Assembly: GCF_016097555.1 (NCBI RefSeq)
Contig: NW_024532772.1
Coordinates: 3,754-67,753, forward strand
DNA: 64,000 nt
From: Gigantopelta aegis
Lineage: Eukaryota
Direction: 5' to 3'
The translations under genes were made by a program, and so were the position numbers. The notes under the pieces are model-generated. The model did not search any database. It saw only the letters and a list, made by a program, of their open reading frames with translations, and had not been told where the DNA came from. Positions 30,228-64,000 of the stretch are shown one piece after another. The stretch's first letter is position 1. Every line of letters begins with the position of its first letter.

Positions 30228-30267
<40 letters not shown>

Positions 30268-38316: not shown

Positions 38317-41300
38317 ATGTCTGATAATCTCCGTCCACCTACTCTTGATCTACTGTGTGATGAGCTAAGGCAAGTAGTTGAATGGGATCAAGTAGCTGTA
38401 AGTCTCAAAGTATCTTATGTGGATATAAAAGTATTGAGACACAATATTCTGAATAGCCACAGCGCAAAATGCATTCTTTACAAAAATGGCTAGATCAAAC
38501 CAACACTGTACATTCATGGCATACTATAGCTGATGCAGTAGAAAAAGCAAAAATCCTGCAGTTGCTGAGAACATTAGAACAAAGTATGCTACTATTATAG
38601 ATCTAGTACCATCCACCTCACAACATGAAAAATCTAGCGATGTAAAAAATGAGCATAATCCAACTAGTTACTTTATGAATAAAGAGCAACAAGGTATTAC
38701 ACTAAATCAAAGCCACAGTGTAAGAATGTAGCGTAAATGATGACCAACATCAAGTTATTATTGAAGAGCAGCAAATCATTCAGTATCTTCAAATTCACAG
38801 CATGAAGAATCTAGTGATACGCTCAATGACAATTATACAACCAGTACTAGTGATATCATTGAACAGCAACAATTAATGGAGAGTGGAGTAAAGCTTGAAA
38901 GAAATATAGTGCAAGAAATCATTGACTTTCTTGAGAGATTTGCAGCATTAGTTTCAGAAACTCAAGCATTTTTTAGAAGAAAAAACCAAAAATTCTTTTA
39001 CCTTTTTATCGATACTTAAAGATTCTAATAGGTGAAGCATTACCAGATGAATCTGGCATCACATATGACAAACTATTTAATATGCTAGATAACCATTGGC
39101 ATTATCTCAAATATCAACTTCTTCAAAGAATAATTAAACGATTTCTTCCGACACTGAATTGCCTTATGAAGTACAAAAATATCAAGATGATATAGTAGCA
39201 TTTAAAAAGTCAACGAAAATGAGAGATCTTGTAGATAATGTGAGATCAAAAAAGAGCATATCAGGTAATGTACAAGTAGCATTGACAGTGGAGGAAGTAT
39301 GGCTAGAGGTCACATTAGAGCATTTTGAGTTTCTAGTAAAACTACTTTTTCAAGAATATGATAAGTCACTTCAAATTGTAGTTGTTCAAGGAGGTAGCTT
39401 GTATATTGCTTGGAGTCTTTCCAAAGCTTTCCTTCTTACAAAATCCAAATTTGACTACAAAGTGCTAAGGGCAATTGGAGTCATCTCACTAATAGTAGGT
39501 ACTATTGTAGTCTTTAACAATGAAGACTCACAAGATGATATGACTATTGACTCAGTCTGTTGGGAGCTATTCAATCTGGTGGTCCTCTTTCTGCTATATC
39601 TCTACTTCTTGAAGTAGGTGGTAATCCTACCTACTAACACAGTCAGGAGAAACAGTGATATCTACTTTATCTAAAATAAAAAATGATAATGGTACCACTG
39701 TGTTACATGTTGCTAGTAAATATGGTCACTCTTCAGTTGTTTCTACCTTACTTAGCAATGGGATAGATCCAAACGTAGTTATGAATAATGGTTGTACGCC
39801 TCTTATGCTAGCTAGTCAGGATGGCCATGATGATGTCATTCAACTGTTACTGAAGTCAAACGTAGCAATAAATACCCAAGGCAAAAATGGAATAACAGCA
39901 AATTATATTGCAAGTCAGAATGGTCACTTTTCTGTTGTTTCTACCTTGCTTAGCAAAGGGGCAGATCCCAACTTAGTTAACAATGATGGCTGGACACCTC
40001 TTATGGCAGCTAGTAAAAATGGTCATAATGATGTCATTGAGATACTACTTTAAAAAAAGGGTATTATGACAAATACCCAAAACAAATATGGAAGAACAGC
40101 CATTTATATCGCTACCCAGAGAGGTCACTCTTCTGTTGTCACTCTCTTACTTAACAATGGGGCAGATCCCAACATAGTGACAATGAAGGCTGGACACCTC
40201 TTATGGTAGCCAGTTTAAATGGTCAACTGATGTCTTTGAGATACTACTAGAGAAAAATATTCCAGTAAATACCCAAAACAATAAGGGAATAACAGCCATT
40301 TGTATCGCTAGTCACCATGGTCACTCTTCAGTTGTTTCTACCTTACTTAACAATGGGGCAGATCCTAATGTAGCTACAAATGATGGTTGGACACCTCTTA
40401 TGACAGCCAGTATAAATGGTCATATGATGTCATTGAGATACTACTAATAATAATGTTTAGTAAATACCCAAAACAATTATGGAAGAACAGCCATTTTATT
40501 GCTAGCCAGAGTGGTCACTCTTCTGTTGTCGCTTTCTTACTCAACAATGGGGCAGACCCTAATTTACCTGATAATGAAGGTTGGGCACCTCTTACGATAG
40601 CCAGTCAAAATGGACATGGTGATGTAATTGAGATATTACTAAGGAAGAATGTTCCAGTAACACCCAAACAAAAAGGGAATAACAGCTATTTGTATGCTAG
40701 CCACCATGGTCACTCTTCTGTTGTCTCTATGTTACTTAGCAATGGGGCAGATGCCAACCTAGCTATGACCAATGGATGGACACCTCTTATGGCAGCCAGT
40801 CAAAATGGTCATGCTGATGTTGTTGAGATACTACTTAACAAGAATGCTCTAGTCAACACCCAAAACAATTATGGAAAAACAGCCATTTATATTGCTAGCC
40901 AGAATGGTCACTCTTCTGTTATTACACCTTACTTAGAAATGGAGCAGACCTTAATTTACCTGGCAATGATGGCTGTACACCTCTTATGGTAGCCAGTCAA
41001 AGTGGTCATGCTGATGTCATTGAATACTACTGGAGAAAAATGTTTCATTAAATACCCAAACAAAGAAGGAGCAACGGCTATTTGTATGGCTAGCTACCAT
41101 GGTCACCTTCCTGTTGTCGCTATGTTAATTAGCAATGGAGCAGATGCCAAAATAGCCGATAATGATGGCTGGACACCTCTTCTGGTAGCTAGTCTAAATG
41201 GTCATGATGATGTCATTAAGATACTACTAGAAAATAATGTTCTAGTAAATACCCAAAACGAAAAAAGGATAACTGCTATTTATATTGCTAGTCAGAGTGG

Positions 41301-44300
41301 TCACTCTTCTGTTGTTTCTACCTTGCTTAGCAATGGGGTAGATCCCAGCCTAGCTACGAGTGATGGCTGGACACCTCTTATGGCAGCCAGTCAAAATGGT
41401 CATACTGATGTTATTGAGATATTACTTAATAAGAATGTTCTAGTAAACACTCAAAACAATTACGGAAGAACAGCCATTTATATTGCTAGCCAGAATGGTC
41501 ACTCTTCTGTTGTTTCTTCCTTACTCAAGAATGGGGCAGATCCTAATTTATCTGACAATGATGGCTGTACACCTCTTATGGTAGCCAGTCAAAATGCTGA
41601 TTATGATGTCATTAAGATACTACTAGAGAAGTATGTTTCACGTAAATATCCAGAACAAGGAAGGAGAAACAGCTATTTGTATTGCTAGCCACCATGGTCA
41701 CTCTTCTGTTGTTTCTACCTTACTTAGCAATGGGGCAGACCCCAACATAGCTGACAATGATGGCTGGACACCTCTTATGGTAACCAGTCTAAACAGTCAT
41801 GGTGATGTCATTAAAAAACTATTAATGAAAAATGCTACAGTAAATGCCCAAACTAAAAAGGGAATAACAGCCATTTATATTGCTAGCCAGAATGGTCACT
41901 TTTCTGTTGTTACTACCTTACTTAGAAATGGGCAGATCCCAGCCTAGCTACAAGTGATGGCTGGACACCACTTATGGCAGCCAGTCAAAATGGTCATGCT
42001 GATGTCGTTGAGAAATTACTTAAAAACAACGTTTTAGCAAATACTAAAAACAATTTTGGGAAAACAGCTATTTATATTTCTAGCCAGAGTGGTCACTCTT
42101 CTGTTGTCTTTTCCTTACTCAACAATAGTGCAGACCCTACTCTACCTGACAATGATGGCTATACACCGCTAATGGTAGCCAGTCAAATGCTCATGATGAA
42201 GTCATTAAGATACTACTAGAGAAGTATGTCCAGTAAATACCCAAAATAAGAAGGACAAACAGCCATTTATATTGCTAGCCACCATGGTCTCTCTTTTGTT
42301 GTCTCTATCTTACTTGGCTTTGGAGCAGATCCCAACATAGCTGACAATAATGGATGGACACCTCTTATGATAGCCAGTGTAAACTCTTATGGTGATGTCA
42401 TTGAGATACTTCTAGAGAATAATGTTCCAGTAAATACCCAAAACAAAAAGGGAGTAAACACCTATTGTATTGCTAGCCAGAACGGTCACTCTTCTGTTGT
42501 TTCTACCTTACTAAGAAATGGGGCAGATCCCAACTAGCTGCAAATGATGGCTGGACACCTCTTATGGCAGCCAGTCAAAATAGTCATGCTGATGTTATTG
42601 AGATATTACTTAATAAGAATGTTCTAGTAAACACCAAAAACAATTATGGAACAACAGCCATTTATATTGCTAGCCAGAATGGTTGCTCTTCTGTCGTATC
42701 CTCCTTACTTAACAATGGGGCAGACCCTAATTTACTGACAATGATGGCTGTACACCTCTTATGATAGCTATTGAAAAAGGTCATAGTGATATCATTAAAT
42801 TATTATTAAAGCACAGGGCACCGATAAATACCCAATCCAAAGATGGAGAAACTGCAATTTATTTTTTTAGCAAGACTGGTCATTCTTCTGTTGTTTCTAC
42901 CTTACTTAGCAATGGTGCAGATCCTAACTTAGCTAACAATAATGGCTGGACACCTCTTATGGCAGCCAGTAGAAATGGTCATAGTGATGTCGTTTTAAGA
43001 TACTATTAGAGAATAATGTTCTAGTAAATGCACAAACCGAAAAGGAGTAACGGCCATTTGTATTGCTAGTCACCATGGTCACTCTTCTATCATTTCTATC
43101 TTACTTAACAATGGGGCAGATCCCAGCTTAGCTGACAATGATGGATTGACATCTCTTATGGCAGCCAGTGGAAATAGTCATAGTGATGTTGTTAAGATAC
43201 TATTAGAGAATAATGTTCTAGTAAATGCACAAACCGAAAAGGAGTAACGGCCATTTGTATTGGTAGTCACCATGGTCACTCTTCTATCATTTCTATCTTA
43301 CTTAACAATGGGGCAGATCCCAGCTTAGCTGACAACGATGGCTTGACATCTCTTATGGCAGCCAGTGGAATGGTCATAGTGATGTTGTTGAGTTATTATA
43401 GAGCAGAATATTTCAGTAAATACTCAAACAAATAATGGAAGAACAGCCATTTATATTGCTAGCCAAAATGGTTACTCTTCTGTCATCTCGTTCTTACTTA
43501 GCAATGGTGCAAACCCTAATATACCTGACAATGATGGTTGTACACCCTTATGGTAGCCAGTAAAAATGGTTACATTGATGTCATTAAGATACTACTACAG
43601 AATAATGTTCTAATAAATACCCAAAATGAAGAAGGAGTAACAGCTATTTGTATTGCTCGCCATCGTGGTCACTCTTCAGTTGTTTCTATCTTACTTAACA
43701 ATGGGGCAGATCCCAACACAGCTACAAATGATGGCTGGACACCTCTTATGGCAGCCGTGTAAATGGTCATACAGATGTCATTGAAATACTACTTAATAGA
43801 AATGCTCCTAGTAAACATCCAAAACAATTATGGAAGAACAGCCATTTATGTTGCTAGCCAGAGTGGTCACTCTTCTGTTGTCTCTTCCTTACTTAACAAT
43901 GGGGCTGACCCTAATTTACCTGACAACGAAGGTTGGATACCTCTTATGATAGCCAGTCACAATGGTCATGGTGATGTCATTGACATACTACTTAATAAAA
44001 ATGTTCTAATAAATACCAAAAACAAATATGGAAGAACAGCCAATTTATATCGCTACCCAGAGTGGTCACTCTTTTGTTGTCTCTACCTTACTTAGCAATG
44101 GCGCAGATCCCAACATAGCTGACATTGAGGTTGGACACCTCTTATGGCAGCCATTGTAAATGGTCATGTGATGTGATGGAGATACTATTAAAGAGAAATG
44201 TTCCAGTAAATACCCAAACCAAAAGGGGAATACAGCCATACGTATTGCTAGTCACCATGGTCATTCTTCTGTTGTTTTCTATCTTACTTAACAATGGAGC

Positions 44301-47300
44301 AGATCCCAACCAAGCTGACAATGATGGCTGGACACCTCTTATGACAGCCAGTATAAATGGTCATGCTGATGTCATTGAGATACTACTTAATAATAATGTT
44401 TTGTAAATACCCAAAAACTATTATGGAAGAACAGCGATTTTTATTGCTAGCCAGAGTGGTCACTCTTCTGTTGTCTTTTCCTTACTCAACAATGGGGCAG
44501 ACCCTAATTTACCTGATAATGAAGGTTGGACACCTCTTATGATAGCCAGTCAAAATGGTCATGGTGATGTCATGGAGATACTGTTAGAGAGAAAATGTTC
44601 CAGTAAATACCCAAACCAAAAGAGGAATAACAGCCATATGTATTGCTAGTCACCATGGTCATTCTTCTGTTGTTCTATCTTACTTAACAATGGGGCAGAT
44701 CCCAATCTAGCTGACTATGATGGCTGGACACCTCTTATGATAGCCAGTGTAAATGGTCATGCTGATGTCGTTGAGATACTACTTAATAAGAATGTTCCAG
44801 TAAATATCCAAAACAATTATGGAAGAACAGCTATTTATATTGCTAGCCAGAATGGTTGCTTGTCTGTTGTCTCTGCTTACTCAACAATGAGGCAGACCCT
44901 AATTTACCTGACAATGAAGGATGGACACCTCTTATGAGAGCCAGTCAAAATGGTCATGATGATGTCATTGAGCTACTACTAGAGAAGACTGTTCCATTAA
45001 ATACCCAAAACAAAGAAGGAATAACAGCTGTTTGTATTGCTAGCTATCGTGGTCGCTTTTCTGTTGTCTCTAAATTACTTAGCAATGGAGCAGATCCCAA
45101 CATGGCCGACAATGATGGCTGGACAACTCTTCTGGTAGTTAGTCTAAATGGTCACGGTGATGTCATCAGGATACTACTAGAGAATAATGTTACAGTAAAT
45201 ACCCAAACCAATAAGGGAATAACGGCCATTTATATTGCCTGTCAGAGTGGTAATTCTTCTGCCATTTCTACCTTACTTCACAATGAAGCAGATCCCAACC
45301 TAGTTGACAATGATGGCTGGACACCACTTATGATAGCTAGTGTGAATGGTCATACTGATGTTGTTGATTTACTACTTAATAAGAATGTTCCAGTAAATAC
45401 CCCCAAAACAATTATGGAACAACAGCCATTTATTTGCTAGCCAGAATGGTTGTTCTTCTGTTGTATCCTCCTACTCAAAAATGGGGGCAGATCCTAATTT
45501 ACCTGACAATGATGGCAATACACCTCTTATGATAGCTATTGAAAAAGGTCATAGTGATGTCATTCAGTTGTTATTGAAGCAGAAAGTACCAATAAATACC
45601 CAATCTAAAGATGGAGAAACTGCAATTTATTTTTTTAGCAACTGGACTGGTCATTCTTCTGTTTCTGTTGTTTCTACCTTATTACTATTAGCAATGGTGA
45701 AAGATCCTAACATAGCTATGAACAATGGCTGTACACCTCTTATGATAGCTACCTCTTATGAAAAAGGTCATAGTGATGTCATTCAATTTTATTAAAGCAG
45801 AAAGTACCAATAAATACCCAATCTAAAGATGGAGAAACTGCAATTTATTTTTTTAGCAAGACTGGTCACTCTTCTGTTGTTTCTACCTTACTTAGCAATG
45901 GTGCAGATCCTAACATAGCTATGAACAATGGCTGTACACCTCTTATGATAGCTATTGAAAAAGGTCATAGTGATATCATTCAATTATTATTAAAGCATAA
46001 GGTACCAATAAATACCCAATCTAAAGATGGGAGAAACTGCAATTTATTTTTTAGCAAGACTGGGTCACTCTTCTGTTGTTTCTACCTTACTTTAACAATG
46101 GTGCAGATCCTAACATAGCTATGAACAATGGCTGTACACCTCTTATGATAGCTATTGAAAAAGGTCATAGTGATGTCATTCAATTATTATTAAAAGCATA
46201 AGGTACCAATAAATACCCAATCCAAAGATGGAGAAACTGCAATTTATTTTTTTAGCAAGACTGGTCATTCTTCTGTTGTTTCTACCTTACTTAACAATGG
46301 TGCAGATCCTAACATAGCTATGAATGATGGCTGGACACCTCTTATGGCAGCCAGTCAAAGTGGTCATAATGATGTCATTAAGTTACTACTAGAGAAGAAT
46401 GTTCTATTAAATACCCAAAACAAAGAAGGAGTAACAGCTATTTGTATCGCTAGTCACCATGGTCACTTTTTCTGTTTGTTTCTACCTTACTTAGCAATGG
46501 GGCAGATCCCAACATAGCTGACAATGATGGTTGGACACCTCTTATAGTAGCCAGTCTAAATGGTCATACTGATGTCATTGAGATACTACTAGAGAAGAAT
46601 ATTCAAGTAAATACCCAAACCAATAAGGGAATAACGGCCATTTGTATTGGTAGTCACCATGGTCACTCTTCTATCATTTCTATCTTACTTGACAATGGTG
46701 CAGATCCCAACCTAGCTGACAATGATGGTTGGACACCTCTTATGACAGCCAGTATAAATGGTCACGCTGATGTCGTTGAGATACTACTTAATAAAAATGT
46801 TGTAGTAAACATCCAAAACAATTATGGAAGAACAGCCATTTATGTTGCTAGCCAGAGTGGTCACTCTTCTGTTGTTTCTTCCTTACTTAATAATGGGGGT
46901 GACCCTAATTTACCTGACAATGATGACTGGACACCTCTTATGGCAGCCAGTGGAGGTGGTCATGGTGATGTTGTTAAATTATTACTAGAGAACAATGTTC
47001 CAATAAATACACAAAACAAAAATGGAGCTACAGCAATTTTATATTGCTTGCTTGACTGGCCACTCTTCTGTCATTACTATTTTAATAACAATGGAGCAGA
47101 TCCTAACTTAGCCAGGACTAATGGCTGGACACCTCTCATGATAGCCTGTGCCAAAGGACATGACAATGTTATAAGAGAGTTATTAATGACCCCAAATTAA
47201 TATCAATCATCAAACTCCTACTGGTACTACAGCATATATCTTTCTAGTCAATATGGATATGAGATATTGTTAGACAGCTACTGAATGGTGGTGCTAATCC

Positions 47301-47587
47301 ACTTATAAGAAACATGTCAGGCATGACACCACTAGATAGAGCTTATCAAAAAGGTCATCATAACATTGTATCACTACTTCAAGAAAACTATACGTGGTTT
47401 CCACGACGACAGTGATCAAGCATCATTAGCAGGTTCTATTGAGTCAGGCTACACAACTGGTGTACTATCAACTGATCACTCATCAGTAGTAGACTCTGAT
47501 GTTGGACAGATATCTGATCTAGAAGAAGACAATCCTCAACTCCCAATTAAACTAGCTGGTAAGGTTTATGTAATCAAGAACTTGTGA
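38317..47587 (+). CDS. Unit 7: best-preserved DD-ANK family gene. DD-like N-terminus, linker, middle region, ~75 ankyrin repeats, C-terminal tail ending ...ISDLEEDNPQLPIKLAGKVYVIKNL*. Open frames are interrupted every 200-700 bp, so it is either a young pseudogene or an intact gene broken by sequence errors
   Basis: MSDNLRPPTLDLLCDELRQVVEWDQVAVSLKVSYVDIK at 38317. 39159 ORF (152 aa; EVWLEVTLEHFEFLVKLLFQEYDKSLQIVVVQGG...LRAIGVISLIVGTIVVFNNEDSQDD). ANK ORFs of 132-228 aa at 39655, 40387, 41002 and 44856. Terminal ORF 47366-47587. Repeat consensus DGWTPLMAASQNGHxDVVEILLNKNVPVNTQNNYGRTAIYIASQNGHSSVVSTLLNNGADPNLADN. Confidence 0.5.
39650..47200 (+). other. Ankyrin-repeat array of unit 7 (~76 x 33-aa repeats)
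   Basis: 99-bp periodicity of the GHSSVVS...ADPN...DGWTPLM motifs across 7.5 kb. Confidence 0.75.
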
Positions 47588-48349
47588 GAGCCAATATCTA
47601 ATAATGTTACACTAAACTAATTTGATTTAAAATAATACATTAATAACATCTGATCACTTCACAGAGCAGACTCTGATGTTGGTCAATTGTCAAATATAAA
47701 GGAATACCATGATGATACTCTCTTCTTACACTGAACCAAGCACACTAAGACAAGAGATATAATGTAAGAAAAACAATAAAGTACTTATTTCCAGTTAATG
47801 CAATGTTAATAATGATAAGATAGAATTTCAATTGAACTTCAATAACTGATGTCTCTAATTGAAAATTTCAAAAAGCATTCTGTAAACATAATGTGTATTA
47901 ATCAATTCATTAGTTATAAAGCACATTACATTGACTGTAATAGAAACAATGATCATTGTAATACAAAGAAGTATCTAGAAGGATCTTGTAATAATAGTTT
48001 AATAATTTAAATATTTAATTATATTTCATATATTTAGGGACAAACTCACCTGACACAGTTACTGAAATATATTTTCAAAATGAACATATTCATAAACATA
48101 CTGATACTTTAATTATTAATGTTTTGTTATGTTATTGTATCTTGTTAATTAATTATTTGTATTAATTAAAATCCATATTTATGAAACTACATTGCTTGAA
48201 ATCTGAATACTAAATAACATATTATAGCGGACTTGTTTACAAATAATTATTGTTTAATTATTATAATATGATATGGTGTGTTTTACATTTTTGTATAATT
48301 ATAATAACAAAAGTTTATAATACTTCAGATGTAATTAATTAATTAATTA

Positions 48350-51010
48350 ATTAACCCATTTAATACTGGGTTGATTCATAATTTGTTGTAGCATAGCGTA
48401 CATGGATAGCTACTATATCCAGCTGATGATGTACTTCATTCCAAATTTCTAATGTTGTAGCATTAAAGATACTATCTACTACTCCTGGAAAAGAAGCACC
48501 TTCATATGAATTGACTGAACTAGGAGCAAATATAACATGTCTGTATGGAGAAAGAAAGAGAGGAATGAGATATTAAGGTTTAAATGAATGGATGGATAGA
48601 GAAAAGAATGGACAGATAGAAGGATCAACCATTGTTCTTAAGTGAAGTACATGTATATCGGAGTATTTGTTACTTACTTATAAGATGGTCGTCCTGGTAA
48701 TCCTTCTCGGTTGAAAATAAATGATTCTCTCTATATTCATTAGTTTATTGTTAAGTATTCTGACTATATTCTCACTACATACAGAGGACAAAGATATAGT
48801 TAATAACTACTGGAATATTATACTAACTTGTCTGTGTCAGCATATTTTATGAGTGTATTATGAAGATGGTAGCAGCTGTGAAAAGTCAGTTAAACAAGAG
48901 TAAAGGAACTCTATAGAACAAATAACCATTATTAATACAATAATTTATATGATCTCTTATCATTAACTAATATACTAATATAATATATATAACATGTAAG
49001 AGTTAATATGACATATTATAATATATATGTATATATAGGAGGACATCTTACCAGTTGATATATTATGATGTTGGAATTGACTACCATATGTTGTCTGTAA
49101 TCATTATATAGTTCCATTAATCTCTCTGAATAATCAATTGGATTGTAAGGAAGAATGGGGTGTGTTGATAGTGCCATGGCAACAGTTAACACACCTCTCC
49201 TAATGCTGTATATGATGTGTGAAGTCAGGATCACCAAAATGACTCATCCATAAAAATTATCATGAACAGAATGATAGACAAAATAATGGTAGCTATTCTA
49301 AATGGATTGATAAATTCAATTAAATGAATAAATACATTATTAGAATGGATGGGCATGATACCTGGTAATCTATGTCACAGCTAGTCACTCCAAGACTCTG
49401 AATAAAGAAAGTAAAGTCACTCGCAGAGCTCAAATTATTTATCCTATTAAATAAACAAATCACATGATAATCATGTGTCAATTACATATACCTTGGTTTT
49501 GAAGATTTGGAGTGGTTCTTCCACTGTTCATAGACTGTCTGGAAATCATTACAAGGACAAGCTACCTAGAGGACAAATGTCATCTTGGATAAGATTAATG
49601 TACACTAACTTGTTTTGTAGCATTGTAAATAGATTCATATAACAGTGGACTACTAGAAGCTGAAAAAGATTCCATTCCTATATTAAAAAATAAAACTATA
49701 TATCATTAAATCTCTTGAATAGTTATATAATTATAATATTATTATTATTATTATAAATGTAATCAAGTCTTTACCTTCTACAGCTACATCTACATTAAGA
49801 TAAGCCATAGCATTTGCTCCTAATAACTTCTCTACATCCTATATATAATATAAATAATATATTATATAACTATTTGTATATAATATACCTCACACTACTC
49901 TGTAGAACCAATCAAACCATATTTCTCAGCATCCCAACTACATAATACTACTGTTCTACCTGGTCTCCAACCTTTAAAATATAGAATTCTTCTTCTCTCT
50001 CTCAGTCATTCTTACCTGTGTTCCTCAGGTCACCTAACACTCGAGCTATGTCCATTATGCAGCTGTACCACTATTAGGATCAACTGCTCCAAATGTCCAT
50101 GCATCATGATGATTACCTACATAACAAGATGATCTGAGAAGAGAGAGAGAGAGAAATATAGTAAGTAGTACAACAGTCCCTATTGATCTACCTGGTTCTA
50201 CTTTTCCATAAATAACAGCAAATACATTACTAATAGTTCTTCTCTCTAATATATTATTTACTGAAGGAAAGTAAACTATTAACAAACAAAGATAAACACA
50301 CATTAGATCAGACATACTTTGTGTTACTAGTAGACTGATAGATATAGTAATTGGTAATATTTAGTTCTCCCTTCCATGACAATGGAACTTCATATGTATC
50401 TAATTGACTAAAGAGAGAAACATACAGACATTTATTATTATTATATATAGTTACTTCATAAAATGGACAGCATCTCCATAAGATATTGGTTGAACAGGTA
50501 TAGCAGGAACATCACCAGATCTGATAAAACATCTTCATAAGACCGACGATATACTTCATCTGAAAGAGAACAGAGATTATAAGGACAATGACAAACAAGG
50601 TAGTTAGCACCAACTGCTGGTATTCCAGGAGTAAGAGGATCTCCACTTGATATCATAACTGACCCTCGTTGTAACCCTCAGGAGGAAGACTAGGACCATT
50701 AGGGTAGACAGGGGGACCTCCTTTGGGAGCAACATCTGCTGGATCAGAGTATATGATTAATCCAGTACATCGAATCTTTGAGCTAAATGAGCCTGTTAAA
50801 GATATAAAGTGCTATCCTACAGACACAGACTCATTCCAAAAAGTAAAAGTATTAAATTATGAAACTTATGATACCTTATCTCCCCTGTATATCCTACCAT
50901 ATCTTGCTATACAAATATGACCAGTAATGTTTAGACTTAAATTTTTAGTAATATAATCAAAGTCTTTAAATTGTGCATAATTTACATAAACCAGAGGTCC
51001 CTAAATTAAA

Positions 51011-51063
<53 letters not shown>

Positions 51064-51630
51064 TTTAGCGCAAGATAAATAATTGCTTACTTCAGCTGAT
51101 CCAATCCTGAATAACTATTAAAAGGAGGAGGGGACATCAGTGTCATTTTCTCCTGGTGTCAGGGGAGGGTTCCTGCCTGTTTCTGCAGTGTAGAGGACAT
51201 CTTTGTCATCATTAAGAACCTTTAGTACATTGTAGTTGCTGCGATTTACATAACTCAATAATACACTATAATTTGTCATCTCTACAAGATCAAAATTATT
51301 TTGTGAGAAAGACTGATAAATGAGGTTAGCAATATCTTTATTTTGTTCCTTGCCAGCAATATGAGGTCTGGCAGTAAGTTGTCTATCAGAGAAGTATTAA
51401 TAATTATGATCAGTTTAATCTTGTAACACTTTACCTTAAAATTCTTTTTATTTATTTGAATCCAAACTTTCAGACACATAGTCTCCTATTGCTGAGACTG
51501 ACCATTAACAGTACAATAGCACCCCATGAGTTAACTGCAGGTCAGTAGACTCATTAATACTCCATCCTAGTAGGAAACCAGCCCCAAAACTGGTACAAAG
51601 TAACAATACTACACTGATAATGGCACAAAT
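48350..51630 (-). pseudogene. GCPII/NAALADase-like copy B: inverted 5'-truncated duplicate of copy C. Lacks the start codon and cytoplasmic tail, and carries frameshifts
   Basis: - strand ORFs: 49016 ([19 protein letters not shown]), 50055 ([26 protein letters not shown], then a stop caused by a missing T), 50456 ([12 protein letters not shown]...[11 protein letters not shown]). Exon GPLVYVNYAQFKDF...[18 protein letters not shown] at 50940-51010 is intact. Homology to copy C stops at 51630 after the TM-coding segment. A 1-bp deletion lies inside the TM exon. Confidence 0.75.
51013..51060. repeat. (GA)n microsatellite in a GCPII-B intron
   Basis: Read directly. Confidence 0.9.
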
Positions 51631-52350
51631 TTTACAGAGGATATACTTGGACTTTTTAGATGATTTTTTAGATGGCAATATGTGAATTCTTTTTGGATAG
51701 GGAGCAGCTCATCCGAACTATGATCATCGGCCATTATAGTATACGGACAAAAGTACTATTTATATTGCATTACATTTCAGTATAAATTTCAGAATGTTTC
51801 CGTATTCTTCCGCATACTAATCGCAGCTGATTTTATATAATAATTATATCGATTATTAGTTTGTAGTGCAATGGCCGATAAAGGTGGACTATTAGATGAT
51901 GACAGAACGAACGAGTTGGGCTCTATCAAAAAAGAGGACCATCCATTACAATCTAAAAGATCGCTTAAAAAGTCCAGACATATCTTCAGTCTAGTTTGTG
52001 CCATTATCTGTGTAGCATTGTTGCTTTGTACCAGTTTTGGGGCTGGTTTCCTACTAGGATGGAGTATTAATGAGTCTACTGAACCTGCAGTTAACTCATG
52101 GGGTGCTATTGTAACTGTTAATGGTCAGTCTCAGCCAATAGGAGACTATGTGTCTGAAAGTTTGGATTCAAATAAATAAAAGAGAATTTAAGGTAAAGTG
52201 TTACAAGATTAAACTGATCATAACTATTATTATTACTTCTCTGATAGACAACTTACTGCCAGACCTCATATTGCTGGCAAGGAACAAAATGAAGATGTTG
52301 CTAACCTCATCTATCAGTCTTTCTCACAACATTATTTTGATCTTGTAGAG
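51280..52350. repeat. Centre of the B/C palindrome. Inverted-repeat arms 51280-51630 and 52010-52350 flank a ~380 bp unique spacer that holds the copy C start codon
   Basis: Frame-shifted six-frame ORFs 51282-51479(-) and 52148-52348(+) translate to near-identical peptides ([26 protein letters not shown]...), which is the signature of an inverted duplication. Direct comparison shows about 95% identity. Confidence 0.85.
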
Positions 52351-55335
52351 ATGACAAATTATAGTGTATTATTGAGTTATGTAAATCGCAGCAACTACAA
52401 TGTACTAAAGGTTCTTAGTGATAATAAAGATGTCCTCTACACTGCAGAAACAGACAGGAACCTCCCCTGACACCAGGAGAAAATGACACTGATGTCCCTC
52501 CTCCTTTTAATAGTTACTCAGGAATTGGGATCAGCTGAAGTAACCAATTATTTATCTCATGCTAACTCTCTCTCTTCTTTCTCCTTTAGGGACCTCTGGT
52601 TTTGTAAATTATGCACAATTTGAAGATTTGATTATATTACTAAAAACTTAAGTTTAAACATTACTGGTCATATTTGTATAGCAAGATATGGTAGGATATT
52701 CAGAGGAGATAAGGTATGAGAAGTCTCATAATTTAATACTTCTAGTCTGTGAATGGGACTGTGTCTGTAGGATAGCACTTTATATATTAACAGGCTCATT
52801 TAGCTCAAAGATTGGATGTACTGGATTAATCATATACTCTGATCCAGCAGACTATGCTCCCAAGGAGGTCCCGCTGTCTACCCTAATGGTCCCTAGTCTT
52901 CCTCCTGGAGGGTTGCAACGAGGGTCGTTATGATAATAAATGGAGATCCTCTTACTCCTGGAATACCAGCAGTTGGTACTATTACCTTGTTTGTCATTGT
53001 CCTTATAATCTCGTTCTCTTTCAGATGAAGTATATCGTCGATCTTATGAAGATGTTATCAGATCTGGTGATGTTCCTGCTATACCTGTTCAACCAATATC
53101 ATATGGAGATGCTGTCCATTTTATTGAAGTAACTTATAATAATAATATAATAAATGTCTGTATGTTTCTCTCTTTAGTCAATTAGATACATTTGAAATCC
53201 CATTGTCATGGAAGGGAGAACTAAATATTACCAATTACTATATCTATCAGTCTACTAGTAACACAAAGTATGTATGTCTGATCTAATGTGTGGTTTATCT
53301 TTGTTTGTTAATAGTTTAACTTTTCTTCAAGTAAATAATATATTAGAGAGAAGAACTATTAGTAATGTATTTGCTGTTTTTATGGAAAAGGTAGAACCAG
53401 GTTAGATCAATAGGGACTGTTGTACTACTTACTATCTCTCTCTCTTTCTCTCTCTTCTTCCCTCTTTCTCTCTCTCTCACTCAGATCATCTTGTTATGTT
53501 AGGTAATCATCATGATGCATGGACATTTGGAGCAGTTTATCCTATAGTGGTACTGCTGTATTAATGACATAGCTCGAGTGTTAGGTGACCTGAGGAACAC
53601 AGGTAAGAATGAGAGAGGAGAGAGGAGAGAGAGAGAGAGAGAGAGAGAGAAGAATTCTATATTTTAAAGGTTGGAGACCAGGTAGAACAGTAGTATTATG
53701 TAGTTGGGATGCTGAGGAATATGGTTGATTGTTCTACAGAGTATGTTGAGGTATATATATACAAATAGTTATATATATATATTATTTATATTATATATAG
53801 GATGTAGAGAAGTTATTAGGAGCAAATGCTATGGCTTATCTTAATGTAGATTTAGCTGTAGAAGGTAAAGACTTGATTACATTTATATAATGATAATATT
53901 ATTATAATTATATAATTATAACAATTGATGTATTTAATGATATAATACTTTTATTTTCAATCTAGGAATGGAATCTTTTTCAGCTTCTAGTAGTCCATTG
54001 TTATATGAATCTATTTACAATGCCACAAAACAAAGTTAGTGTACATTAATCTTCTGTATTTATCCAAGATGACATTTGTCCTCTAGGTAGCTTGTCCTTG
54101 TAATGATTTCCAGACTGTCTATGAACAGTGGAAGAACCATTCCAAATCTTCAAAACCAAGGTATATGTAATTGTCACATGATTATCATGTGATTTGTTAT
54201 TTAATAGGATAAATAATTTGGGTTCTGGAAGTGACTTTACTTTCTTTATTCAAAGTGTGGGAGGTGGACCAGCTGTGATATAGATTAACAGGTACCATGT
54301 CCATCCATTTCTAATAATGTATTTGTCCATTTAATTTGAACTTATCAAGCCATTTTGTATTCATCAATCCATTTAGAATAGTTACGATTATTTTGTCTAT
54401 CATTCTGTTCATGACAATTTTTATTGGATGAGTCATTTTGGTGATCCTGACTTCACACATCATAAAGCATTAGGAGAGGTGTGGTTAACTGTTGCCATGG
54501 CACTATCAACCACACCCATTCTTCCTTACAATCCAATTGATTATTCAGAGAGATTAATGGAACTATATAATGAGTTACAGACAACATATGGTAGTCAATT
54601 ACAACATCATAATATATCACTGGTAAGATGTCCTCCTGATATATACATATATATTATAATATGTCATATTAACTCTTACATGTTATATATATATTATATT
54701 AGTATATTAGTTAATGACATAAGAGATCATATAAATTATTGTATTAATAATGTCATTTGTTCTATAGAGTTCCTTTACTCTTGTTTAACTGACTTTTCAA
54801 CAGCTGCTACCAATCTCATAATACACTCATAAAATATGCTGACACAGACAAGTAATAGTAATTCCAGTAGTTATTAACTATATCTTTGTCTCTGTATTGT
54901 AGTGAGAATATAGTTAGAATACTTAACAATAAACTAATGAATATAGAGAGATCATTTATTTTACCAGAAGGATTACCAGGACGACCATATTATAAGTAAG
55001 TAATAATACTCTATATATATGTACTTCACTAAGAAACAATGGTTGATCCTTCTATCTGTCCATTCTTTTCTCTATTCATCCATTCATTTATACCTTAATA
55101 TCTCTTTCTCTCTTTCTTTCTCCATACAGACATGTTATATTTGCTCCTAGTTCAGTCAATTCGTATGAAGGGGTCGTTCTTTTTTCCAGGAGTAGTAGAT
55201 AGTATCTTTAATGCTACACATTAGAAGATTGGAATGAAGTACATCATCAGCTGGATATAGTAGCTATCCATGTACGCTATGCTACACAAATTATGAATCA
55301 ACCCAGTATTAAATGGGTTAATTAATTAATTAAAC
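51871..55335 (+). CDS. GCPII / NAALADase-like copy C (M28 peptidase, transferrin-receptor family; type II membrane protein). Multi-exon with a start codon. Several exons carry 1-bp indels, so it may itself be a pseudogene
   Basis: Exon 1 ORF 51871-52179 gives MADKGG...cytoplasmic tail..[22 protein letters not shown] (TM)..ESTEP. Exon 2 (from about 52247) ...[19 protein letters not shown]...[14 protein letters not shown] matches GCPII HLAGTEQN...YDVLLSYPN. 52688 [22 protein letters not shown]...[10 protein letters not shown] matches GAKGVILYSDPADYFAPGV...LPGGGVQRGN. 52940- [12 protein letters not shown]|intron|[11 protein letters not shown]. 53510- [12 protein letters not shown] (zinc-ligand region, with indels). 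54428 [50 protein letters not shown]. 54890- [31 protein letters not shown]. Stop near 55333. Confidence 0.7.
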
Positions 55336-56165: not shown

Positions 56166-56849
56166 GCACTTGTGTTACAATTACTAAAAATTCAGCAGAA
56201 AGTCCATGAATCTGGTTCTGATTCCAATCATCTAAAACTATTTACACAATAAAGTATGGACAGATCTCTTGACACTTTGCTATGAAAGTGTCATGATATG
56301 ATAACGGATCTCTCTTATTATAACATAATATTTTCAATTATTGCAGATTACAAGTTTTTAAAATAAATTTTAGTACAAGTTGTAATTGATAATATGTGTC
56401 GAAAGAAAAGAACCAAAAAATTGAAAACGTTATACAAAAAATAAATTATCAGTCATAACGAGGGCCTATTAATTAATGTATACCATTGTTAGTATTATTA
56501 TTATTTTCAGTTATTTTGTAAACATGTATATGAATAAATCATACATTTTTCGAGGGAAAAAATTTCAAAATTATAATATCATAATTAATTAATTAATTAA
56601 TTATATTAATTAATTAATTAATTAACCTCTACTTTTTGATGAGGGCACTTGTTTAAGTAGAGGTTGTGCTGAAGTTGATAAGAGAACTGTTTTGAGTGGA
56701 TTGATAGCTAGACACCTAAGAAAGAGAGAGAGAGAGAGAGTCTCAACTAGTAATCCCCATAGTAGAAATATACTACATTAACTTAAAGGAATAAATTCAC
56801 TAATTTATTTATAGTTATCAAATCAACTATCTCATTACTATGTGTAATC

Positions 56850-58707
56850 CCAGGGGCATACCTGTTGTACCCGTTAACGGTGTACTATTGGGATGATTCC
56901 CTAGGAGATAATCCGCTAGGTGGAGAATATACTGAACCCATTCCATCGCCACTGTTACTGGAATAGCTCGGTAGGCATAGGGAAGCCTTGAGGTGGGGAA
57001 CCAGTTGGTGACATATCTATGGGTTTACTCATAATAGCCAAACCTGATGAGAAATACTCATTCATATGCATGTCCATATATGGTTATATGTATCTATAAA
57101 TCATTCATCCATCCATCTATCCATTAATCTTTTTATTCATCTAAACAAACTAGCATAATATGTACCTTGAAAGTGTTCGGAGAGATAATCAGGTGACCCC
57201 AAGGAGGAGGGATCAGGAATGCCTCTCACCGAAATATGGTCCTGGAAATCCCGAGGGATAAAATGGAGGAGCAGGCATGTTGGTGTCTCCATGGTAACTA
57301 TAACCTCCATAATGAAGCTAAAAATTACACAATTTTTAACATTGAATAATCATACAATTAGAATTGTGTATTTGTAAGTATGTGTATTTCTCTGCTAGGC
57401 TATTTACCTGGGGGGTGAGAAACTCATGGGACTCATTTTCCCTCGTTTTATTGCCTCCCGAGCATCATTGGTGTACTAAAGATATCTAAGTAGAAAAGAG
57501 GGGAGAGAGAGAGAACATTATTTTACACAGGAAGTTCCAATGATGTATGTGGTCAATAGACTAGTAATCAGTGGTCATTATATCAGACCACAAGTACACA
57601 CACCAAATACCATAGCAATTAGAATACAATCTAGAAATGCTTTTTATAATATAACAAACAATTGAAAAAGATTTGAAAATGAATAAGAGAATTTACAATA
57701 GGAGTATTGTTACAGTATAGACAGGTAGTGCGGCCAATACCGATAGGTAGTATGAGGATTAAAATGGAGGATAAGTTGGTGAGTAATTGAAGGCTGCAGC
57801 TGCTGATGCGTGATGGTGTAGAGAGTACAATATATATTATAAATATAATTATACTAAATGTTTTTATACTTATAGGGTGTGGGTTCTTACCATAGCTATG
57901 ACTCAAAGCAGCTGCTCTAGCCTTGTCAGCTTGTGTGCGAGAGCTTCTTTAGTTTGAGCCACTTTAACTTCAACCTGATCAAAATTTTTCTTTATTACAT
58001 TGTCCCTGTCTAAATCACTGTCATTTATATCTACTCATCAATTCTCTTTACCTTCTGTTCTTGAGATCATGAAATTGAATACTGCAGACTTTGGCAGCAG
58101 GGCCAGGTTTCTCAAAAGTCACAAACCCCAAATCCTAAAGAATAAGAATGGAAATCAGCCCCCATGATATACAATACAGATCTTAATAGTATCACAAGTT
58201 CACTATAATATCAATCTTTTTTTTATGACATACCTCTGTGTCTGTTTGGGTGTTTGTGTACATCATACATCATCTGAACTTCTTCGATCTAAAGAGAGAG
58301 AAACCCGGAGAGAGAGAAACATTGCAAGTAAGTTTTTAATGATGCTTATTAAGAAAACCATATAATTAAGCTAATTCAATAATGAGTATAATTAACATTC
58401 CTTTAATCACATACTCTGTATTATATATTAGTGATATTTACATCAAGATGAAACAATTTAAGATACAATTAAGATCAGATGATATTGTGGTCTATATTTG
58501 ATTATTTGAATACAAACAATTCACAAAATGAAACCAAAAAAGGAAATAAATAAATAAAAATATTATTGGATTGTCTTACATTGCCAAATTTGGAGAAGAA
58601 ACTCCTTCATATCATCTTCATCAGTATCAGAACTTAGACCACCTACGAAAATCCTACGAACCTATATCAGAAATAAATTTAGTCATTAAGTGTAGTAATA
58701 TGATGGT

Positions 58708-58751
<44 letters not shown>

Positions 58752-61700
58752 GGAAGGAGAGAGAGAGAGAGGAGAGAGAGAGAGAGTCATTCAGTCAGTA
58801 CACATATAATTTTATTGCAATATTTTTAAAACTATTGTTGTCATAAATATATACAAGTTTCTTTTGATGATCTGTCTGTCCTGAAGACTGTCAAAAATGT
58901 CACACTTTACTGAAGCTAGTACTTTCCCTTCCACTCAAATTACAAAATAAACAGTAAACACTTAAACAAATAAGTTAACATTTATGGAACACCCAATACA
59001 ATATAATCTTTGTATACAAACAAACCACCTACATACATGTACATTTACATACATGTACAACATTTAACTTCATTTGTGTATATATATTACAGTAGTATTG
59101 TTTTTGATTAGTTCTCAAACACATTTCCTCTAACTATCCAATATCCTCTTTGCAACCAGAACTACAGTCAAGTCACACAAAATAAACTTATACATGTAAA
59201 ATAACACATTCCATAACTCCCTAAGTTTTCATAACTGAACTCCAGCAGCTTGGAACACAGCCAAATAAGGACAATAAGGACTGTACCATATAAATAGAGT
59301 GTATTACAATGCTAACATCCAATATATAACACTGTAACTTGATATTATTATTTTTGAATTTAGTTAAGCCACGCCCAGCAAGCTACACTAGCATTTAATG
59401 ATTATTCATAGCTATAGCTTGTATCTTGTTTATTGTATTCAAAGACTGTTTGAATTTTAAACATCATTTAAAGATCAGCTCACTGATAAGAACCAGGTTA
59501 CAAGAAATAAGAATTATATTAACAATATTCATGTCAAATGTAAGAATGACCTTTCTTTACAGGAATGTGTCTACATTTACATCATCAAAATTATAAGTAT
59601 ATTTTACTTCTACATGTATAAAGGCACACACACACACATAGATATATCAAATTGATCAACTCCACTAACTACATATATCATTCTGATATCACGTCAAATA
59701 GAGTAGAATTTTCCTTTATAAGTAATCGTAATGAAAAGGTCCTTCCTTTCAAAGGTTAAAATAAATACAGGAAAGCGCTGTGGATATTAGCTTCAATAGT
59801 AAGATAATTCTTAAATCAGAGGTACTCCCAAAGAGAACCATTACTTAGAGAGAACCCTTTACTTAGAGAGAACCCAAAAGGCTGAGTATAACTGTGATAT
59901 AATAACAACTAGTTTAAACATTGGCTATAACTCTCAGTATAGTTGCCAGATAACTTGGTCACTACTATAGTAATGATATAGCATTCAAATGTCTTCAATA
60001 TGAAAACTGTCATCTCATCTAATAGTGTATTACTAATAGTAGACAATTAAGTTAAAAAGAGATAACATTTTCCTAATAGTGTCAAGTTGTCCACACTCTA
60101 AACTAATATAGTTCATAAATTGTTGCAGCCTTAAGATTGTATAGGCTCTATTGAATGTTACTAATAGTCTCAGCTTGTCATCTATCTACCAGGACACTCT
60201 GATAAAACAAACCAGCCCTCTATTCTCTTCACTCCACTACAAATTTTTTAATAGAGGAATTTAATATTGAAGAGTATGCCATCAGTTTTTTACAAACAAG
60301 TGATAAGATTGATCAAACTCATTGAAAGTTAGCTGCCCATTACTGATAATATGTTATGATAATAATATAATATAATAAGTATGTAGATTTGATATGATCT
60401 ATGGCACATTAATAGCATATAATAATGATATACTACTGTAGCTATGATACTAGGAATTAATGTAAGATGACTGCTCACATTGACATTGTATTAAAGTTAA
60501 AAAGAGACATTTTTTTACATTCAGTGCTACTGACCTGAGATACTGGTGTTGGTCTAGATCCATTTCTTTTAGGAACAGCCATTTCTTAGCAAAGTTTAGG
60601 ATCAAATCTATCAAAGGAAATACAATCAATCATAAGTTATCATACAGGTAGTTGACTCTAGTTAGATCAATAAACATAGACTAGATATCTTCTCAAATAA
60701 GGACAACAACAACAACACCACGTCATATTTCTCTTGATATTATTATCAAGCCTCAAGTTTCACTAAAGTAGATTAAATATTGACAGAGTTTGATAACTGT
60801 CATTGAATGGGAACTTGGTATGTTGTTACTAAGTGTATTGTGATAAACACAAAGTCAGTATTGATGGAGTACATGAAATACCAATGGTACTCCAATATAT
60901 AATTGTTGTTGATAAAAATTATCGACAGTACTAGCTTTAGTCTTTGATGATGTTTCATATCATGTAACAGTGTGTATGACAAAGTTATTAGACTATATTA
61001 AGTTACTGTGGTTAGTACATATTATAGGCTATCTTGAGTCATTGTGGTAAGTACTGATGTTCACTAGTCTAGAGCTTACTGATGGTAGCTATCCTAGGTC
61101 ATTGTAGTAAGTACTGATGTTCACTAGTCTAGAGCTTACTAATGGTAGCTATCCTAGGTCACTGTGGTAAGTACTGATGTTCACTAGTCTAGAGCTTACT
61201 AATAGTAGCTATCCTAGATCACTGTAGTAAGTACTGATGTTCACTAGTCTAGAGCTTACTAATGGTAGCTATCCTAGATCACTGTGGTAAGTACTGATAT
61301 TCACTAGTCTAGAGCTTACTAATGGTAGCTATCCTACTGTTGTTCACTAGTCTAGAGCTTACTAATGATAGCTGTTATTGGATAGAGTTTATTGATGATT
61401 ATAAAGCAGTAATGGTCACAATTGATAAAGTATACTTCTCAGTTTTTAAGTAATCCTCCAAACCCTTTATAAAAACTATCGCAATTATCAAATTGTAAAC
61501 TAATAGAAGCCAAGTTAACTAACAAGACCATTAACAATATACACATATCGCTACTACTTTGTACGCATATTTTATACATGACTTGTGTACATTTGAATGG
61601 ACACATTTAAATAACTTTCAATATAGTATAATGGTCAAATTGAGTTATCAAGATTATATGCTCATCACCAAACATACACTAAATGACCACAATCCAGCAC

Positions 61701-62454
61701 TTCCTTAAATGGAAAATACACGGCAGTTTACATGACAATTTTGGGTAGCTACTGCAAGCTAGTTGTGATGGGGACATTACTGACACTTTAATACAATGTA
61801 TTGAGAATTAGCATCTAATCTATCTTACCACATCACTATACTAAGTGTTAATATTAAGAAATAACAAGCTCTGTTAATTAGTACTTCGTTGCTATGGTGA
61901 TCTAGAAAACAACTATCACTAACAAAGCTAGTGAACATTATGAGTCAAAGTCATCGTCCTATTAGAGACTCTTAGTATATTATATGATAGTCAGTAGGCT
62001 TATTTATAAATGGCAGTCAAATTTATAAGAACTCACAAGTTTTTCGTCAATTACTAGAGGGTTCTCAGCATGAGCATCCAAAATATATTGTACTGTTTCA
62101 GCATCTTTAAAAGTAATGAAACCAAAACCACTAGAAGAAAAGAAAAGAAGAAGAGAAGAAAGACAAGGAGAGAGAAATACAATTAATGATAATGAAACTA
62201 TATCTTTTCCTCTTAGACTTCTCTAAACACATACAAATTTCACTGAATGAATGTATGTATACAAAGTGTGTAGAACTAATGATAAAGGATGAAAAACTAA
62301 CAATGTTAGTCAACTGATGTTTAGATAGTTAAATGTCAGTAACTAACATGTTATAATTTATAACACTCACCGTGAACGTTTAGCTTGATCTTTCATAATT
62401 GTACATTCCAAAATGTCTCCAAACTCAGCGAAAAATGTGCAAAGTGTTTCTGCA

Positions 62455-62487
<33 letters not shown>

Positions 62488-63311
62488 TGGAGAGAGATAG
62501 AAAAAGAGAGAGAGAAAGAACATTTTAAAATTGACATACAAATCTATTTTACATCACAAGTACACATAATTATAAATCAAAATTGGTCACTTAAACCACT
62601 TGTAAGACTCACCCATAATGAATACTATAATTAACTGAATGAGATAAGGTTTCAATTCATGCCTAAAGCATGGTAGTTGTATGCTTTAGACATAAGTATC
62701 ATACCACACACATTCTCTAGGGCTGGTATCAAGTACACATATCTTAAAGTCAATACTTATATCCTGAGTCTGATACCACAATTAAGACTGATACCTATAC
62801 TCGTAATCTGGCTAGCATCCACAAACATTGTACTATGGGTCAGAACATATCACTAGTAATGGACTAAAAAGGTGGCAATAACCATTAACTATCTTGTCAA
62901 GTTTACGCAAACATAATACATACCTTCAGTTGTCTCCAAGTTGAGAGCACCTACAAATAGTTTGCTAAAAAATATAGTGCAGAGAAATGATCAGTTTAGT
63001 GTAGCAGAAACAGATACAATAATTCACTCAGTCTGTTATATATAATAATTTTGTGTATTTTCACTTTATAATATTATGTATTATCCAATAGTGAGCAAGC
63101 ATATAATTCTCTTTGATAAACTACAAAGAAATAACCATAACTAGATATTTCCCAGTGAAAACATTTTAGCTGTGAATTAAATAATTAACTCACTTGTGTT
63201 GGCTGTCTTCACAAGCTGGGGGGCTTTCTGGTGGAGAAGGAGAGCAAGTATCTGAGCTATTCGTCTTCTCGGTGACTTTGTCCTCTTCTGGTTGCAAAGT
63301 TAGACTCGAAG
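56850..63311 (-). CDS. Multi-exon gene for a two-RRM RNA-binding protein (Musashi / hnRNP-A/B / DAZAP1-like) with an Ala/Pro/Gly/Tyr-rich C-terminal region
   Basis: Minus-strand exons with GT/AG borders: 63195-63311 (MPVPSSLTLQPEEDKVTEKTNSSDTCSPSPPESPPACEDSQH), 62925-62964 (KLFVGALNLETTE, RNP-2), 62371-62439 (TLCTFFAEFGDILECTIMKDQAKRS), 62017-62130 (RGFGFITFKDAETVQYILDAHAENPLVIDEKL, RNP-1). RRM2: 58580-58653 (IFVGGLSSDTDEDDMKEF..), 58224-58278 (IEEVQMMYDVHKHPNRHR), 58071-58153 (GFGxVTFEKPGPAAKVCSIQFHDLKNR), 57891-57974 (VEVKVAQTKEA...). Further low-complexity C-terminal exons lie at 56850-57830 (..LHYGGYSYHGDTNMPAPPFYPSGFPGPYFG..). Confidence 0.75.
58706..58790. repeat. (GA)n compound microsatellite (intronic)
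   Basis: Read directly. Confidence 0.9.
61028..61370. repeat. Minisatellite: ~60 bp unit x ~6 (agctatcctaggtcattgtagtaagtactgatgttcactagtctagagcttactaatggt), intronic
   Basis: Read directly. Confidence 0.9.
62017..62964 (-). CDS. RRM1-coding exons of the RNA-binding protein gene (three exons, phases consistent)
   Basis: Splice phases join cleanly: ..SQHN|KLFVGALNLETTE|TLCTFFAEFGDILECTIMKDQAKRSR|GFGFITFKDAET... Canonical RNP-2 and RNP-1 are both present. Confidence 0.8.
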
Positions 63312-63800
63312 GAACCGGCATGTTGAGCAATTATATCTGAAATTATAGTTGTAGTGAGAAGACTTTCAGGGGCAGTGACAGGTTGTCTAAGTTCGTTGTT
63401 ATTAGTGACAGTGTTATAGCGTTTTTTTCTAGTGTTTTTTGTCCAGTAGACAGGTGAAATAAATTTGCTTTTTGTAGGGATAGTGGACGGGAGGTAAGTG
63501 AGACTAATACAAATAGTTGTGGAAGTGAGTTTGACGTGGAAGAGTGTTAAAAACTGCAGCGACGCAACTTGCACTACAATCTAAAGCTAAGAAAAGACGT
63601 AGAGAGAGACGGACGATTGCACTAAACTTCAGACTAAAGCGAAGGACACTACGACAGCACAGCACACACAGCTAAAGAACACTGCACTAACAACACACCA
63701 ACTAACTGCAGAACCCTGGCCTGTGAATGGCTGTTCTAAACGTAGTTGTGGGAGTATTAAATGCCAGCAGTAAGCGGAAATTGAGCGTGGGAGGTAGGAT
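63312..63800 (-). promoter_or_regulatory. GC-richer 5' region (putative promoter / 5'UTR) of the RNA-binding protein gene
   Basis: The local rise in G+C and CpG (gcgacgcaacttgcac...agacggacgattgcac...gcgaaggacactacgacagc) contrasts with an AT-rich background and sits immediately upstream of the inferred ATG at 63311-63309. No TATA box was verified. Confidence 0.4.
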
Positions 63801-64000
63801 TTTCTCTATGAATAAAATTATTTGCCGTCAATGAAGATTAAAAATAAAATATATATTATTTAGTTAAGACACGTTTCAAGAGTTTTAAAATCTGGTCTTT
63901 CTCGAAGTTCCTTCATTCCGTGAGCATATGGGCATTGATCAGATAGTAAACGCGGACAGCCTTGTGGATGATGGTCATAAAACCAGCATAACTTCGTTTT

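Follow-up and report, generated by a model that had tools for sequence, protein, structure and literature searches.

A 64,000-nucleotide (nt) stretch of contig NW_024532772.1 (Gigantopelta aegis assembly GCF_016097555.1), referred to at its full length as the window, carries on its minus strand, at 56653-63321, a 14-exon gene for a putative Musashi-like RNA-binding protein whose reading frame, as the sequence is given, is broken by many single-base insertions and deletions (indels). The window is eukaryotic DNA with a G+C content of about 33%, and all 13 introns of the gene are of the GT-AG type, with 26 of 26 splice dinucleotides intact (Table 1). Exons 1-4 splice in phase to give MPVPSSL...NKLFVGALNLETTEETLCTFFAEFGDILECTIMKDQAKRSRGFGFITFKDAETVQYILDAHAENPLVIDEKL, including NKLFVGALNLETTEETLCTFFAEFGDILECTIMKDQAKRSRGFGFITFKD, which constitutes a complete RRM1 with the canonical RNP motifs KLFVGAL and RGFGFITF. 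Immediately past exon 4 the raw spliced exons run into a stop, and the locus offers no uninterrupted open reading frame (ORF). The RRM2 pair, RIFVGGL and RGFGFVTF, appears only after 1-nt lesions are removed, and Pfam finds RRM_1 twice on the frame-corrected protein (E 1.9e-33). A preliminary description of this locus had recognized a two-RRM gene with an intact RRM1 and had named Musashi, hnRNP A/B and DAZAP1 as proteins to compare it with; the identification holds, the gene being of the Musashi, hnRNP A-B-D and DAZAP1 group, and the comparison with orthologues that it proposed places sponge Musashi-like proteins closest.

The best full-length relative is a protein of 412 amino acids from transcript-like Logan contigs (P0001), with 65% identity over its full length. 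A partial 'Musashi homolog 2-like' protein of Amphimedon queenslandica (P0030, contig ACUQ01021206.1) reaches about 86% identity over RRM2. Among the best 120 matches, the named proteins are nearly all Musashi homologues (42-48% identity), and the names hnRNP and DAZAP1 do not occur. The Musashi assignment is drawn from these best matches rather than from a tree, as is the choice between MSI orthology and a sponge-specific sister group. The Amphimedon genomic contig (L001) has introns at the same positions at the exon 6-7, 7-8 and 8-9 junctions, the stretch that it covers, and shares about 80% nucleotide identity in the exons. To judge from these intron positions and this exon identity, the sequence probably comes from a demosponge related to Amphimedon; because synonymous sites between the two are saturated (proportion of synonymous differences, pS, 0.73), it would not be a close relative. 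One long Amphimedon exon (L001 1108-1353, ACUQ01021206.1) corresponds to exons 10-12 of the window gene, which differs from the Amphimedon model by two additional introns and by additional coding sequence (exon 11) shared with P0001 and with a further sponge orthologue, P0003. The difference suggests that introns were gained or lost or that the Amphimedon model is incomplete.

With the Musashi family (MSI1/MSI2, Drosophila Rbp6/msi), the gene shares two N-terminal RRMs, the RNP-2 (K/R)(L/I)FVGGL and RNP-1 RGFGF(I/V)TF motifs, a linker of the form IDPK..AVP and a C-terminal half rich in Pro, Tyr and Gly. It differs in having no open frame beyond exon 4 as given, in a Val-His insertion and a T to P change in an RRM2 loop, and in a 4-codon extra in the linker. 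The tandem-RRM architecture is also that of DAZAP1 and of the hnRNP A/B-D group (A1, A2/B1, D, DL), and the best solved structures over both RRMs are hnRNP DL, A2/B1 and A1 (E ~1e-33 to 1e-35). This ranking is not decisive because the solved Musashi structures hold just one RRM. Musashi-named proteins in a large protein database score about 167-171 bits, as against about 120 bits for the solved hnRNP structures, the queries being slightly different. The Gly-rich/RGG tail of hnRNP A1 is absent from the window protein, whose C-terminal tail matches those of sponge Musashi-like proteins. By its sequence the locus can be described as an ordinary two-RRM Musashi-like RNA-binding protein gene, presumably a further, expected member of the known sponge Musashi-like set. 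In other animals, Musashi proteins bind UAG-containing RNA motifs and control translation in stem and progenitor cells.

Table 1. Positions in the window of the Musashi-like exons and of the other coding features.
Feature	Position	Strand	Content	Frame and lesions
Exon 1	63194..63321	-	ATG at 63321; 42 N-terminal codons + 2 nt (MPVPSSLTLQPEE...); length matches and is alignable with the P0001 N-terminus	Clean
Exon 2	62924..62964	-	RRM1 RNP-2 (KLFVGAL)	
Exon 3	62371..62449	-	RRM1 middle part	
Exon 4	62037..62130	-	RRM1 RNP-1 ((R)GFGFITF) and RRM1 end	
Exon 5	60535..60607	-	Inter-RRM linker (IDPKL...AVPKRNGSRPTPVSQ)	+1 T in ATTTGAT (60606-60604)
Exon 6	58580..58661	-	RRM2 RNP-2 (RIFVGGL) and EFFSKFGN	+1 in GAGTTTCTTC, T run 58601-58599
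Exon 7	58234..58288	-	IEEVQMMYDVHKHPNRHR	In frame; 6-nt extra (VH) relative to all orthologues
Exon 8	58052..58134	-	RRM2 RNP-1 (GFGFVTFEKPGPAAKVCSIQFHDLK...)	+1 G in GGGG (58129-58126)
Exon 8, second lesion	58062-58052	-	Near AAGAACAGAAG	-1
Exon 9	57891..57974	-	VEVKVAQTKEALAHQADKARAAAL...	-1 in GCACA-CAAGCT (57938-57928)
Exon 10	57741..57802	-	AAAAFNYSPTYPPFYPH...	+1 twice: TTTTAATCC at 57764-57756, CATACTACC at 57754-57746
Exon 11	57408..57485	-	DIFSTPMMLG...KRGKMSPMSFSPP	G run 57462-57453; C6 run at donor 57417-57408
Exon 12	57166..57317	-	LHYGGYSYHGD...PPFYPSGFPGPYF / VRGIPDPSSLGSPDYLSEHFQ	+1 G in TTCGGTGAG (57233-57225)
Exon 13	56862..57043	-	GLAIMSKPIDMSPTGSPPQGFPMP...YSPPSGLSPRESS..NSTPVNGYNQ	
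Exon 13, reconstructed lesions		-		56975-56967 (+1), 56895-56887 (+1), 56883-56873 (-1), 56869-56862 (-1)
Exon 14	56653..56715	-	C-terminus VSSYQSTQNSSLINFSTTST; TAA stop at 56655-56653	
NAALADL1-like fragment	9469-9684			
NAALADL1-like copy A	28538-30720		Shortened	
NAALADL1-like copy B	48339-51728	-		
NAALADL1-like copy C	51895-55333	+		
Ankyrin-repeat arrays	7680-8600, 13842-14870, 18338-20850, 23675-27560, 33526-35780, 39667-47380		198-nt period (2 repeats per unit)	

Two lesions had been described before, an extra T and an extra G in RRM2. The first lies where it was reported: GAGTTTCTTCTCC occupies 58604-58592, removal of one base restores EFFSKFGN (...DEDDMKEFFSKFGN), and the exon measures 82 nt compared with 81 nt for its Amphimedon counterpart. 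The second is present in the sequence (ggatttGGGGtttgtgac / ggatttggggtttgtgac, 58135-58118) and shows up as a 1-nt gap when the DNA is aligned with that of the Amphimedon orthologue; the coordinates given for it, 58145-58153, are about 20 nt off and fall in the polypyrimidine tract of the intron preceding exon 8. This account of two lesions, both +1 and both in RRM2, is incomplete, as the gene carries at least 11-14 frame changes that include -1 events and extend beyond RRM2. Under a stiff penalty, the number of frame changes required by frameshift-aware protein-to-DNA alignment is 12 with P0001, 11 with P0003 and 7 with the partial P0030. Explicit reconstruction uses 14 one-base edits (eight '+1', six '-1'), one each in exons 5, 6, 9 and 12, two each in exons 8, 10 and 11 and four in exon 13, and yields a 417-codon ORF ending at the exon 14 TAA. 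The count is ambiguous in exon 11, with one change by the alignment program and two by motif conservation (FSPP), and in exon 13 two or three changes suffice for the program as against the four reconstructed.

The corrected ORF is colinear from end to end with the sponge orthologues, including the low-complexity C-terminal half, where FNYSPTYPPFYP, FSPP, YGGY, PPFYPSGF, DYLSEHFQGLA, YSPPSGLSP and VNGYNQV are recovered. The lesion sites are not chance matches, because on either side of every shift the translation resumes the orthologue alignment. They are confined to exons 5-14, where there are 11-14 in 914 nt; the density is put at about 1.3-1.5% per base. Six of the eight '+1' events extend a run, the affected runs are mostly just 2-3 bases long, and no motif is common to the sites. 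Alternative splice sites that might rescue the frame at the exon 4/5, 8/9, 11/12 and 13/14 junctions were rejected, there being no GT or AG at the positions needed.

Two insertions are not single-base changes. Exon 5 retains after correction a 12-nt in-frame extra, TGCTAAGAAATG (60590-60579), which is missing from all orthologues, partly repeats the following 19 nt, as read directly from the sequence, and contains a TAA; outside it, the corrected frame holds no nonsense substitution. With two further ±1 changes (CTT[T]GCT, AAGAAA[A]TG), this segment would read in frame as LAKKM, inserted in a linker that varies in length. The 6-nt insertion of exon 7 (Val-His, 58261-58256) falls in the RRM2 beta2-beta3 loop and adjoins the T to P change, which affects the conserved TNRHRG motif.

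The corrected frame bears the mark of selection. Against the Amphimedon coding sequence, its ratio of nonsynonymous to synonymous divergence (dN/dS) is 0.07 and its differences are distributed as 45/31/126 over the three codon positions, which together identify it as the frame maintained by selection. Of the 129 sites at which the three remaining sponge sequences are in agreement, the window deviates at 14 (10.9%), while the same odd-one-out rate is 8.0% for P0001, 17.9% for P0003 and 7.3% for P0030. Since the window value falls in the range of the expressed orthologues, no excess of amino acid decay accompanies the region's approximately 13 indels. Were these natural, no more than about 13-40 neutral substitutions would have arisen with them, which puts the ratio at about 0.3-1 or higher. 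In natural neutral DNA, the ratio of indels to substitutions is usually about 0.05-0.2.

Lesions of the same kind are found elsewhere in the window, where all the other genes examined, introns included, are interrupted by ±1 run-length indels. A NAALADL1-like peptidase gene, whose best database match has 49% identity, is present in three and a half copies, none of them intact. Copies B and C lie head to head in inverted orientation, about 130-170 nt apart, with 89.6% identity and 83 gap openings over 3.5 kb; copies A, B and C are equidistant and form a star-like tree. Different frame breaks occur in the three copies within the same conserved exons, one copy being correct where another shifts. 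A three-way alignment assigns 64, 48 and 71 unique substitutions and 31, 14 and 12 unique 1-nt indels to the three copies. These 1-nt indels fall in runs of at least two bases in 53 of 57 cases; overall, such runs make up about 42% of the bases.

The ankyrin-repeat arrays, the largest of which comprises 37.5 units, are part of a tandem segmental duplication of 10-13 kb. Death-domain-like ORFs precede them (that at 16778-17377 is one), and the window holds several Death-domain/ankyrin-repeat genes. The density of frame-breaking gaps varies 4- to 6-fold among the arrays. The array at 23.7-27.6 kb differs from that at 39.7-47.4 kb by about 18% mismatches, and the units within the latter differ by about 20%. 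Against a common consensus, frame-breaking gaps number 36 per kb in the former and 9 per kb in the latter, a difference of about fourfold, and gap openings number 138 versus 112, the 138 lying in half the aligned length. A test for run enrichment in the ankyrin units against their consensus found none, a result that was discounted because units about 20% divergent align with too much noise. Along a 10-kb direct duplication, 1-nt gaps range from 3 to 17 per 500 aligned columns (mostly 7-17), with mismatches ranging from 20 to 105. A technical error floor is suggested because the indel load is independent of divergence, depends on the region and hits the exons of all genes. No tRNA or Rfam RNA gene that could serve as an internal error probe was found in the window.

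Taken with the constraint on the corrected frame, this distribution makes it probable that the frame breaks are assembly indel errors in a functional Musashi-like gene. The gene would comprise about 417 codons, with a real mRNA that reads straight through, and the breaks in exons 5-14 would be ±1 run-length miscalls, that is, single-base consensus errors of a noisy assembly. Such breaks share with the run-length errors of uncorrected or poorly polished assemblies the ±1 changes in runs, the occurrence of both signs, the presence in exons and introns of all genes and the decoupling from substitutions. They differ in that the affected runs are mostly of 2-3 bases and in that their density depends on the region, being about 0 at the lowest and about 3.5% at the highest. 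The interpretation as sequencing error given in the preliminary description was right in direction, the window-wide indels and the strong constraint in the corrected frame both agreeing with it; its appeal to a classic homopolymer signature went too far. Homopolymer context alone does not discriminate between error and biology, because natural small indels likewise favor such contexts.

Several observations weigh against assembly error. No reads, cDNA or second assembly of the same species were found in searchable collections, an exact look-up of one window ORF returned no match, the exact DNA pattern at the first RRM2 lesion, with either length allowed, had 0 matches in metagenome contigs, and a protein-guided scan of metagenome contigs revealed no relative. 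The lesions are also uneven. Exons 1-4 (342 nt) have none, and a 60-nt tandem repeat in intron 4 (61038-61336), only 0.4 kb from the indel-rich exons 5-14, is free of indels across its five copies, which have 95% matches; under the error reading, the rate would have to shift abruptly around 60.6-61.0 kb. The exon 5 TAA, situated within a 12-nt segment, does not reduce to a plain 1-nt error, for finished consensus sequence 1.3-1.5% is a high density, and natural 1-nt indels also prefer short runs. Between NAALADL1-like copies B and C, dN/dS is 0.68 with a flat codon-position spectrum (27/22/24), and the substitutions are transition-biased (transition/transversion ratio ~1.2). Some genes of the window may be truly decaying, and the window may hold true pseudogenes.

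The divergence among the NAALADL1-like copies was also considered as proof that the frameshifts are technical, for which it is unhelpful, since 0.68 slightly favors real decay of those copies. An origin of the inverted B/C duplication as a palindromic read artefact was considered as well; here the transition bias hints at real paralogue divergence.

Instead of a functional gene, the locus may represent a genuine, recently inactivated pseudogene or decaying duplicate, in which the frameshifts and the exon 5 TAA are real and a functional copy resides elsewhere in the genome. This is considered unlikely. It would account directly for the frame breaks, at least 11, together with the in-frame TAA of the 12-nt insertion, the 6-nt insertion in the RRM2 loop and the replacement of the conserved T of TNRHRG by P. 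The gene moreover adjoins duplicated genes with relaxed-looking substitutions (the dN/dS of 0.68), and the transcript-derived proteins in the databases come no closer than 65-86% identity. As same-species proteins are missing for the NAALADL1-like gene too, the latter point says nothing on expression. Frame-disrupting mutations are indeed present, as expected of a pseudogene, and sequence errors would produce the same picture equally. The relaxed constraint that should accompany them is not seen, given the dN/dS of 0.07, the intact GT-AG sites, the single TAA confined to an inserted 12-mer and a lineage-specific amino acid change of 10.9% that is not raised over the 7-18% of the orthologues. 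Real inactivation would also need an indel-to-substitution ratio of about 1, the first 342 coding nt are lesion-free (p ~0.01 under a uniform rate), and the excess of 1-nt indels decoupled from substitutions occurs throughout the window. Were the lesions real, the locus would be an unprocessed pseudogene, still young, of Musashi, the sponge stem-cell regulator, or would encode a truncated one-RRM product (exons 1-4); it would lie in a decaying duplicate block, and 1-base indels in the lineage would be unusually frequent relative to substitutions, a state of affairs that appears quite doubtful.

In a mixed case, most of the 1-nt lesions would be assembly errors and the 12-nt segment of exon 5 with its TAA would be real, either truncating the protein after RRM1 or marking an allele- or isoform-specific defect. 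The segment lends itself to this as the sole lesion beyond a single 1-nt change, missing in all orthologues and partly repeating the next 19 nt. Against this, the two further ±1 changes that make it an in-frame LAKKM lie in a linker whose length varies, and the exons downstream of exon 5 are as conserved as those upstream, which leaves the mixed case very improbable. Real frame changes overcome at expression by insertion/deletion RNA editing or programmed frameshifting can practically be dismissed: nothing specific speaks for them beyond the conservation of the corrected frame, the sites lack a common motif, similar lesions occur at varying density in introns and in all other genes, and no such mechanism is known for sponge nuclear genes.

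If the breaks are assembly errors, the chief value of the locus lies in quality control, as the window would contain about 0.5-3.5% single-base indel noise, depending on the region. None of the frameshifts, truncated ORFs or 'pseudogenes' in the window should be accepted as it stands, and predicting genes in this assembly requires frameshift-aware methods or polishing. The earlier remark that the two RRM2 lesions bear on every frameshift in the window is in its practical sense reinforced, in that such frameshifts need read-level support before they are read biologically. In biological terms, the locus would extend the sponge Musashi-like genes by one, its intron positions and C-terminal tail being conserved, as could be expected.

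Outside the coding features, a poly-C tract at 1692-2699 (1,008 nt, 95% C) contains scattered single other bases and is bordered by ordinary AT-rich flanks. Its origin as an artefact of sequencing or assembly is almost certain, and it points to a raw or poorly polished assembly. Intergenic or intronic tandem repeats at 11622-12418 (67 nt, about 11 copies) and 31649-31859 (55-56 nt, about 3-4 copies) show 3-5% indels. Long (CT)n and (CA)n microsatellites lie directly 5' of several 3' splice sites of the Musashi-like gene (58720-58790, 62450-62510, 56715-56745 and others); several of these have phase-shifting 1-base interruptions that would suit the same indel noise. At the edge of the window, 63880-64000 on the minus strand holds the 3' end of a neighboring gene with a CCCH-type zinc-finger-like C-terminus (...LCWFYDHHPQGCPRLLSDQCPYAHGMKELRERPDFKTLETCLN*), which extends beyond the window.

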